DNA of 40,199 nt, taken from the IMG/VR virus record IMGVR_UViG_2681813201_000021; one strand, given 5' to 3'. This DNA is from a virus. Its lineage: Duplodnaviria > Heunggongvirae > Uroviricota > Caudoviricetes. The notes under the pieces are model-generated. The model saw nothing but the letters and a program-made list of their open reading frames with translations, was not told the origin of the DNA and searched no databases. The position numbers and the translations under genes were made by a program. The stretch's first letter is position 1. Each line of letters starts with the position of its first letter. Shown here piece by piece: positions 6,524-7,467 of the stretch.

Positions 6524-7112
6524 ATCGATTAACAGAAACCACAGAACGATGAGGCTAACCGTGGGTAAGCATCACTGGAAAGTAGAAAAACAGCCTGAGT
6601 GGTACGTGAAAGCTGTCAGAAAAACTATCGCAGCGTTGCCGGGTGGTTACGCTGAAGCAGCTGACTGGCTGGATGTAACAGAAAACGCATTATTTAACCG
6701 CCTTCGTGCCGATGGCGATCAGATTTTCCCGCTGGGATGGGCAATGATTTTGCAACGTGCTGGTGGAACTCACTTCATTGCTGACGCTGTGGCGCAGTCT
6801 GCAAATGGCGTCTTTGTGTCTCTTCCTGACGTCGAGGATGTGGACAACGCCGATATTAACCAGCGCCTGCTGGAAGTCATTGAACAGATTGGCAGTTATT
6901 CCAGACAGATTCGTTCGGCAATCGAAGACGGTGTGGTGGAACCGCATGAGAAGACAGCAATTAACGACGAGCTGTATCTCTCAATTTCGAAGCTGCAGGA
7001 GCATGCAGCACTGGTCTACAAAATCTTTTGCATTTCAGAAAGTAATGACGCCCGCGAGTGTGCAGCTCCGGGCGCCGTGGCGTGTCGTGACTGTGGAGAA
7101 ACTAACGCATGA
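6504..7112 (+). CDS. Phage regulatory protein in cII position (YdaT-like, tentative)
   Basis: About 200 aa from ATG 6504 overlapping cro 3' end; family assignment from recollection only. Confidence 0.45.
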
Positions 7113-7447
7113 ACAGTTTAACAACACACTACCGTCGCTCGCAACTGATTGCGCTTCCTGTACCGGGTGGAAAAGCGAAGGTGGAGTATTGCTATGCAGT
7201 TAATGTACCAGGTGACAGGGAAATTGTAACCCACAGCTTTGCTGAGTGGGCTGTGGGTGATTTCAACCGGCAGAAGGAGACAGTCCTTTGCGACAAGTTA
7301 ACCGCTGGTTCAAAGATCACTACGGAGTGCCCGTCAGAGTCATTCGTTGGGAGCCGGAAACACAACGAGTTATCTACCTCCGCGAAGGCTATGAGCATGA
7401 GTGCTTCAGCCCGCTCGAACAGTTTCGTCGTAAATTCAGGGAAATAG
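7109..7447 (+). CDS. Hypothetical protein; C-terminal part doubtful (see finding on 7288-7467)
   Basis: ATGA start overlap with upstream gene; first half protein-like, last 50 aa low-complexity Ser/Ala-rich. Confidence 0.3.
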
Positions 7448-7467
7448 AGGTCGGTCATGAGCACTAA
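7288..7467 (+). CDS. Candidate small protein (59 aa) with TTG start, alternative frame to the 3' half of 7109-7447
   Basis: GAAGGAGA Shine-Dalgarno 8 nt upstream of TTG 7288; translation ...[49 protein letters not shown]... looks globular; no ATG in frame. Confidence 0.35.

Follow-up and report, generated by a model that had tools for sequence, protein, structure and literature searches.

Which of two competing reading frames is used where the same 359 bases lie between a prophage regulator gene, ymfL, and a phage replication gene? We examined this question at positions 7109-7467 of a 40,199-nucleotide stretch of DNA from a virus of the Caudoviricetes (IMG/VR record IMGVR_UViG_2681813201_000021), hereafter called the window. 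One frame contains the open reading frame (ORF) ymfM; the other contains a shorter ORF that starts at a TTG codon and belongs to the DUF4222 family. A reading made earlier from the letters of the sequence only (the sequence-only reading) had offered two answers, either a small TTG-initiated gene nested at this site or one ancestral gene split by an indel near 7250-7290. The features and coordinates that it gave were confirmed on the sequence. Our comparative analysis favours two real overlapping genes at 7109-7467, with neither a frameshifted gene nor programmed frameshifting, and with the ymfM frame kept open across DUF4222; we put the probability of this reading at about 0.78. The either/or choice is replaced by a locus in which the 7109 frame is no artefact and both frames would be used.

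Two reading frames share 160 nucleotides upstream of the replication gene

The ymfM ORF lies on the plus strand (7109..7447) and extends from ATG 7109 to the TAG at 7445-7447, giving a product of 112 amino acids. Its end is Ser/Ala-rich, as had been noticed, with 11 Ser and 4 Ala among the last 38 residues. It corresponds to ymfM/b1148 of the e14 element of Escherichia coli K-12 (NC_000913.3), known as 'cell division inhibitor YmfM' (SfiC), with 98.3% DNA identity, and matched phrog_1170 along its whole length (positions 1-112 of 112, E 4e-70); no family was identified for YmfM in Pfam. The competing plus-strand ORF (7288..7467) is in the -1 frame relative to ymfM. This frame is closed by TGA at 7258-7260, its first possible start is TTG 7288, it contains no in-frame ATG, and it ends at TAA 7465-7467 after 59 amino acids. 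The strong Shine-Dalgarno (SD) sequence that had been reported before the TTG was located on the plus strand at 7273..7280 (GAAGGAGA; core AAGGAG at 7274-7279), separated from the TTG by an 8-nucleotide spacer and lying within the ymfM codons Q-K-E. The two ORFs share a dual-coding stretch of 160 nucleotides on the plus strand (7288..7447), in which residues 60-112 of YmfM, its tail, are read in the +1 frame of DUF4222.

The TTG-initiated ORF is a DUF4222 gene with a conserved start

Analysis of the 59-amino acid peptide revealed a match to Pfam PF13973 (DUF4222) at 68.2 bits (E 4.6e-19, profile positions 3-52 of 53), where the gathering cut-off is 27 bits, and to phrog_1343 at positions 2-59 of 59 (E 3e-34). 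No match was found in NCBIfam for either the YmfM or the DUF4222 peptide. A tblastn search with the 59-amino acid peptide identified 116 phage records, with identity down to 33-42% in Yersinia, Morganella and Elizabethkingia phages. Full-length matches to the YmfM peptide were restricted to close relatives; elsewhere the match covered residues 1-88 or less. To judge from these matches, the TTG ORF at 7288-7467 is a real gene that is already known to Pfam and RefSeq, and is not novel itself.

The start of the gene was compared in two sets, a diverse set of 39 DUF4222 loci from genomes and phages and a close set of 89 E. coli/Shigella-type loci, which comprise 54 haplotypes. At the codon that corresponds to TTG 7288, 33 of 37 other loci had ATG and 4 had GTG, and a GGAGG-, GGAAGG- or AAGGGG-type motif was present 7-12 nucleotides upstream in most of these 37 loci. 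None of the 89 E. coli/Shigella-type loci had a codon other than TTG at this site. The nested small gene proposed by the sequence-only reading is thus upheld by its Pfam and PHROG matches, its RefSeq entry, its conserved homologous start and the frame-specific selection described below.

Position 7258, the first base of the TGA that closes the frame upstream, was a four-allele site among the 54 haplotypes (T 43, G 9, A 1, C 1), with all changes silent in a ymfM Gly codon. Some databases contain longer DUF4222 predictions (69-73 amino acids) because these alleles remove the TGA.

DUF4222 was located directly upstream of, and overlapping, a replication gene both in the window, where its stop at 7465-7467 lies past the replication-gene ATG 7457, and in 33 enterobacterial loci. 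The same synteny was observed in Providencia, Yersinia and Morganella phages, in Elizabethkingia phage EKP1, in E. coli phage CharmingMan, and for the gene of the RgdR regulator, which is adjacent to a primase gene; this arrangement is our own observation rather than part of a published family definition. More distant members, including the characterised RgdR, are stand-alone proteins of about 55-100 amino acids. The stand-alone ORFs of the Providencia, Morganella, EKP1 and CharmingMan phages have a short gene upstream and overlap into the start of the replication gene. An AlphaFold2 model of the window protein (predicted local distance difference test, pLDDT, 85) gave a compact small beta-barrel of five strands and a short helix, so that DUF4222 is predicted to fold as a small SH3/Tudor/KOW-like barrel.

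The selected frame switches at position 7288

The sequence-only reading had proposed to decide between the frames by their conservation in related prophages. When this comparison was made, the first ~60 codons of ymfM behaved as real coding sequence and DUF4222 emerged as the selected protein within the overlap. Mean pairwise differences at DUF4222 codon positions 1, 2 and 3 were 0.188, 0.141 and 0.498, respectively, across the 39 diverse genes, a pattern that carries the signature of purifying selection on the DUF4222 frame. The third positions of DUF4222 are the second positions of YmfM, and YmfM second positions were the most variable class (0.498). Amino acid-level purifying selection in the overlap was detected for the DUF4222 frame only and not for both frames.

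The 54 close haplotypes gave the same picture. Upstream of the TTG (7109-7287), the variation fell on third positions of ymfM, and 14 of 22 polymorphic sites were synonymous in the ymfM frame. Within the overlap (7288-7447), 13 of 15 polymorphisms were silent in DUF4222 and nonsynonymous in YmfM, and 14 of 15 altered the YmfM tail. These polymorphisms place the switch of the selected frame at 7288, from ymfM upstream to DUF4222 downstream.

The part of YmfM outside the overlap, about 60 residues encoded on the plus strand by 7109..7287, evolves as a protein. This N-terminal domain retained 46-65% identity across genera, and its ~60 codons are, by this measure, real coding sequence. AlphaFold2 predicted a beta-beta-beta-alpha-alpha arrangement with modest confidence (block-mean pLDDT 51-72). 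Residues 67-112 fell below pLDDT 50. Four-fold degenerate sites of DUF4222 vary freely, and therefore the residues of the YmfM tail vary widely (for example A, G, E, V or D at one position). The tail is best described as an overprinted extension, unconstrained in sequence and predicted to be disordered.

The ymfM frame stays open through DUF4222 and ends at a fixed stop

We also compared the +1 frame of DUF4222, which is the ymfM frame, across the diverse loci. It was open through DUF4222 in 39/39 loci. The upstream ORF in these loci starts with MNSLT or MNSLN, or is a short ORF in Shiga toxin (Stx) phages, and it has three divergent types of N-terminal module. The DUF4222 genes contained on average 0 stops in the +1 frame versus 3.87 in the +2 frame; a general avoidance of stop trinucleotides was ruled out by these 3.9 stops per gene in the +2 frame. 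The openness could be followed to individual codons. Val, Leu and Ile codons that precede a codon beginning with A or G can form a +1 stop by their third base, and at such dangerous sites stop-forming codons were found in 0 of 173 cases; all ended in T or C. At harmless sites, codons ending in A or G made up 32%, 73% and 17% of V, L and I codons, respectively, and at comparable A-initial sites in the window's own genes such codons accounted for 42%, 79% and 11%.

The open frame of a single genome is unremarkable, as 9.6% of 52-codon windows in the prophage's genes have an open +1 frame (P ~ 0.1). The evolutionary evidence comes from the depth of the tree, with a length of ~8.6 substitutions per third-position site. 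In a phylogeny-aware neutral simulation the per-tip probability of an open frame was 0.08-0.15, and realistic codon usage gave P ≤ 5e-5 that all 39 frames were open; deliberately conservative settings gave 0.0002-0.018. This simulation led us to reject chance as the cause of the open ymfM frame.

The end of the frame was equally regular. The ymfM-frame ORF terminated at the same alignment column in 33 of the 38 relatives whose 3' end is present; the 39th locus reaches the end of its contig before this column. The stop lies at +157 from the DUF4222 start; in-frame insertions in DUF4222 shift it to +160, +163 or +166. In the window it is the plus-strand TAG at 7445..7447, formed by the rare Ile codon ATA and the G of the next DUF4222 codon. 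Among the relatives the stop was made with rare codons at this one DUF4222 codon (ATA 23, TTA 9, CTA 1), each followed by G or A, and it was positioned exactly 9 nucleotides upstream of the ATG of the next gene in 30 of 33 loci. An AGG or AGGA follows the ymfM-frame stop in most relatives; in the window, the SD of the replication gene (AGAGG, plus strand, 7446..7450, 6-nucleotide spacer) overlaps the stop. Four unrelated types of replication gene occur as the next gene, always in the frame of the ymfM ORF. The constraint found on the tail is openness and a fixed stop point, not sequence.

Five loci (ST64B sb41, SfV orf37, a Stx1 phage, a Stx2 phage and a Citrobacter braakii prophage) lack this stop, and the frame continues into a Phage_ASH or Rha gene. 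Outside the clade, six DUF4222 genes were inspected; those of the Morganella, EKP1 and CharmingMan phages and of RgdR (7 stops) contain +1 stops in their first 100 nucleotides.

In several phage records DUF4222 lies entirely within the 5' part of a long annotated +1 ORF (L124, ST64B sb41, 1358-2515; L125, SfV orf37; L126/L127, the 'antirepressor' of Stx2/Stx1 phages; L129, a Hafnia 'Ash family protein'; and L042). The Pfam Phage_ASH domain in these relatives begins only past the DUF4222 stop, and the phage records in question do not annotate DUF4222. Either the starts given in the records probably lie too far upstream, or the upstream ORF is truly fused to Ash/Rha. On the minus strand, a GTG-start ORF of 90 amino acids (7192-7464) runs antisense through the locus; its frame averages 0.33 stops per gene and is nearly free of them in every relative. 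Rather than a gene, this ORF is probably a side effect of coding on the sense strand.

Genomic setting and annotation

Judged by its gene content and sequence, the prophage in the window is a lambdoid type, e14/SfII/SfIV-like, and the locus lies in its immunity and replication region, within the early-right operon. A LexA/CI-like repressor gene (5599-6225, minus strand) and a cro-like gene (6323-6523) are followed by ymfL (6561..7112, plus strand), which encodes a CII/CP76-like regulator (Pfam Phage_CP76, E 1e-13); the coordinates of this gene, 'protein YmfL' in the Prokaryotic Genome Annotation Pipeline (PGAP), were taken over from a locus 100% identical to the window (L005). The TGA of ymfL overlaps the ATG of ymfM as ATGA at 7109-7112. 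Downstream, a plus-strand gene (7457..8398) encodes an O-like replication initiator (Pfam HTH_36, E 4e-11), called 'DNA replication protein O/primosomal protein' in phage records, and its ATG at 7457 falls 11 nucleotides inside the 3' end of DUF4222. This gene contains five to six tandem 15-bp repeats (TCAAAATCTGAC-type, 15-nucleotide spacing, ~7745-7867) that encode a SDSDPSKSDASKSDPSKFDASKS stretch of the replication protein and look like lambda-style origin iterons within an initiator gene. A PerC-family gene (8395-8889) is located directly 3' of the replication gene, and a second, small ORF of the LexA family (9539-9865) lies farther downstream, ahead of a RusA-like gene.

The locus is widely distributed. 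The 601 bases around it showed 98-99.8% identity to Shigella phages SfII and SfIV and several E. coli phages, and the 359 bases were present in 2009 of 5426 complete E. coli genomes, K-12 e14 included (98.3% identity). These genomes are annotated in two incompatible ways. RefSeq/PGAP places DUF4222 at exactly 7288-7467 with a TTG start (WP_001250269.1, 'DUF4222 domain-containing protein'), both in a locus that matches the window at 100% identity and in K-12 genomes annotated by PGAP. The same records (L005, L006) carry no ymfM and leave 175 nucleotides (7113-7287) apparently non-coding in ~2000 E. coli genomes. The converse holds for phage records in GenBank and for NC_000913.3, the curated K-12 reference, which annotate ymfM and omit DUF4222. 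The sequence-only reading took 7109-7447 to be the annotated frame, which holds for these phage records and K-12 but not for RefSeq/PGAP, where only the TTG ORF appears. The frame conflict is a real disagreement between annotation sources, each giving one gene and never both. As each major source misses one gene, annotation of both is called for.

Alternative explanations

On the two-gene reading, DUF4222 would initiate internally at AAGGAG and TTG 7288 while ribosomes of the ymfL-ymfM chain, coupled by the ATGA at 7109, pass over this site. These ribosomes may then be carried across a weakly initiated DUF4222 to the start of the replication gene, where termination at 7445-7447, on the AGAGG SD and 9 nucleotides before the ATG, could lead to termination-reinitiation coupling. 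An early stop in the ymfM frame would strand ribosomes 160 nucleotides upstream of the replication gene, for which the other source of ribosomes, DUF4222, has a weak start. Such ribosome delivery is our preferred reason for the openness of the frame. It would fit the distant relatives, in which DUF4222 itself would be the coupled link, and the Ash/Rha clade, in which the frame runs on. The main alternative reason is a functional need for a disordered YmfM tail, which is not exclusive of ribosome delivery.

Several points weigh against the two-gene reading. Both products are predicted here from sequence, and DUF4222 depends on TTG, a weak start codon. The overlap of its own stop with the next start could already couple the replication gene. 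The residues of the YmfM tail are unconstrained and predicted to be disordered, and the tail may be without function at the protein level. The P value rises to 0.018 under the most conservative simulation settings, and the simulation was based on a UPGMA (unweighted pair group method with arithmetic mean) tree from a 180-nucleotide gene with recombination ignored. Finally, two DUF4222 genes that have no ymfM-like partner also leave most of the +1 frame open, one from Providencia, where the first stop is at +151, and one from Yersinia, where the gene contains no stop; some of the openness may therefore reflect composition.

The most serious rival accepts DUF4222 as the only product that matters past 7288, with ymfM a gene of ~60 codons, its tail an accidental read-through, and the openness due to ancestry and codon composition. 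The lack of constraint on the tail sequence (YmfM second positions the most variable, 14/15 overlap polymorphisms changing the tail), its predicted disorder, the ~10% probability that a 52-codon window in a single genome is open in the +1 frame, and the complete omission of ymfM by PGAP are all consistent with this explanation. Shorter ymfM-like ORFs are also known, namely phrog_20047 (63 amino acids) and an Entomohabitans protein (78 amino acids), but the 63-amino acid proteins in the databases result from frameshifts and terminate in the third frame. An accidental tail is also hard to reconcile with 39/39 open frames despite ~8.6 substitutions per third-position site (P ≤ 5e-5 under realistic settings), with dangerous V, L and I codons that switch between T and C and never to A or G, which are free where harmless, or with a stop built from rare ATA and TTA codons at one fixed column. 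We therefore regard this explanation as unlikely, though it deserves to be kept in view.

The other rivals are far less probable. A single ancestral gene split by an indel at ~7250-7290, leaving a frameshifted gene or pseudogene, would account for database proteins in which the YmfM N-terminal domain is fused in frame to DUF4222: P0178 (118 amino acids), P0184 (119 amino acids, 14 sequences), P0224 and P0231 (109 amino acids, 44 contigs). However, these fusions are rare, their junctions differ, and they originate from 1-nucleotide indels, in at least one case within a G6 run, which marks them as derived. The separate arrangement is found in ~2000 E. coli genomes and in every genus sampled, and DUF4222 possesses a separate conserved start codon, ATG or GTG in relatives, with an SD, and stands alone in distant phages and in RgdR. 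The split gene put forward by the sequence-only reading is on these grounds very improbable. Programmed -1 frameshifting or transcriptional slippage, which would join the N-terminal domain of YmfM to DUF4222 as in dnaX or the phage G/GT tail chaperones, is just as hard to credit. DUF4222 does lie in the -1 frame of ymfM, the SD-like AAGGAG is just upstream of the frame junction, an SD-like sequence is a known stimulator of frameshifting in dnaX, and natural fused variants are tolerated. Against this, inspection of the ymfM frame from 7261 to ~7290 (codon listing 7259-7291) identified no heptamer of the form X XXY YYZ, the junction differs in sequence between the three N-terminal module types, the zero frame would need no 52 further open codons, and the conserved ATG/GTG/TTG with its SD already explains expression. 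The idea that only the 112-amino acid YmfM is real and the TTG ORF spurious has the least claim of all. It could appeal to NC_000913.3 and the phage records, which annotate ymfM only, to the filamentation caused by expressing the ymfM ORF, and to a TTG start without any ATG, but all comparative evidence puts the purifying selection past 7288 on DUF4222, which also has a confidently predicted fold and a characterised homologue.

Fused proteins of this kind recur in public assemblies with junctions equivalent to ~7256-7290, and P0231 carries an indel in the G6 run of an SfV-type sequence. Sequencing errors, tolerated mutants and slippage-prone sites are candidate origins.

Consequences for the identification of SfiC

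The ymfM gene of e14 has been reported as SfiC, an inhibitor of cell division inducible by the SOS response (Ansari et al. 2020/2021, bioRxiv 10.1101/2020.11.19.390815). That study expressed the ymfM 'open reading frame' from pBAD24, which led to filamentation, and used a ymfM deletion; an earlier library clone contained the complete ymfM, a portion of ymfL and residues 1-92 of ymfN (bioRxiv 10.1101/2020.11.19.390815). The window ORF is the same ORF as K-12 YmfM/SfiC, with 112 amino acids, 98.3% DNA identity, ymfL upstream and an O-like gene downstream. The published work treats it as a single gene, whereas in the present analysis its second half codes in two frames, for YmfM and for DUF4222. 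Of the 59 codons of DUF4222, the pBAD24-ymfM insert contains 53, together with the SD and the TTG; the C-terminal residues that it lacks vary among relatives and were modelled in part with low confidence. Both the pBAD24 insert and the library clone include the nested gene, and the Keio ymfM deletion removes it too. As these constructs do not separate the frames, the product behind filamentation and the SfiC phenotype is ambiguous.

Searches of the literature identified no frame-discriminating control and no separate test of the two frames, and no mention of DUF4222 in connection with ymfM or e14. Three points appear to be unreported in the literature searched: that the ymfM frame is selectively open across DUF4222 throughout a clade of enterobacterial prophages, that annotation is split between the two genes, and that the identity of SfiC is ambiguous. 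As a tentative proposal, which we consider doubtful as it stands, the SfiC filamentation may be wholly or partly due to DUF4222, and the clade may maintain a selected dual-coding segment of ~52 codons that delivers ribosomes to the replication initiator. Two single-base changes, checked on the sequence, distinguish the frames: 7294C>T introduces a stop in DUF4222 only (at Q3, silent for YmfM D62), and 7299T>A truncates YmfM only (at L64, silent for DUF4222 V4). In addition, 7288T>C combined with 7273G>A, 7276G>A and 7279G>A abolishes the TTG and the SD and is silent throughout in YmfM. The distinction matters, as YmfM is cited as the long-sought SfiC and RgdR, the one relative of the nested gene that has been studied, regulates virulence and motility pleiotropically.

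Comparison with known systems

The predicted DUF4222 barrel resembles the SH3/Tudor/KOW barrels of Spt5/NusG (KOW), UvrD/PcrA (C-terminal Tudor), CarD (RNA-polymerase-interacting) and KorB (C-terminal), but differs from them in sequence (identity 6-15%). A Foldseek search with the DUF4222 model gave no match with E ≤ 1e-3. As the modelled likeness is to a very common fold, it would be no basis for proposing RNA-polymerase binding or another specific activity.

RgdR (ECs1581), encoded by prophage CP-933C/Sp7 of E. coli O157:H7, is a 99-amino acid prophage regulator (Flockhart et al. 2012, PMC3378721; review PMC10877973) and is the only experimentally studied DUF4222 protein found in the literature searched. 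It activates LEE1, represses motility and binds DNA weakly and non-specifically (PMC3378721, PMC10877973); regulatory activity within DUF4222 is known only for ECs1581 and C1493 (PMC3378721). RgdR also belongs to PF13973, with residues 17-68 scoring 82 bits, and aligned with the window family by hhalign at 97.6% probability (E 4e-12, 42% core identity). Both are small prophage proteins whose genes lie upstream of, and overlap, the replication gene of their element. The partner of rgdR is the P4-type primase gene ECs1582, with a 4-nucleotide overlap (O157:H7 Sakai ECs_1581, positions 13305-13604 of our locus L136), and the adjacency of DUF4222 and replication genes therefore extends to P4-like satellite prophages. 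The two proteins differ in architecture, as RgdR has N- and C-terminal extensions over its 99 amino acids and a basic isoelectric point, while the window protein, at 59 amino acids, is essentially the bare domain. The RGD motif, which is important for activation of the type III secretion system by RgdR (PMC3378721), occupies residues 20-22 before IYRD and is absent from the window protein, where V4-N5-R6 precede WFKD at the equivalent position. The motif is specific to the enterohaemorrhagic E. coli RgdR subgroup and lies outside the Pfam domain definition. RgdR also differs in having no overlapping partner ORF, with 7 stops in its +1 frame. The effects on LEE1, motility and DNA binding are those reported for RgdR.

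The closest parallels to the overlap itself are overprinted phage and viral genes, in which one frame is under purifying selection and the other is compositionally biased, disordered and high in nonsynonymous variation. Out-of-frame genes of this kind include E in D and B in A of phiX174, and Rz1 inside Rz of lambda. As in those cases, both frames at the ymfM locus are open over tens of codons within a tightly packed, translationally coupled operon. The locus differs in that the C-terminal tail of the upstream gene is overprinted, not a whole embedded gene, and in that the constraint detected comprises only openness and a fixed stop. An open frame with a fixed stop provides a clean, small example of selection on the openness of a frame without selection on the sequence it encodes.

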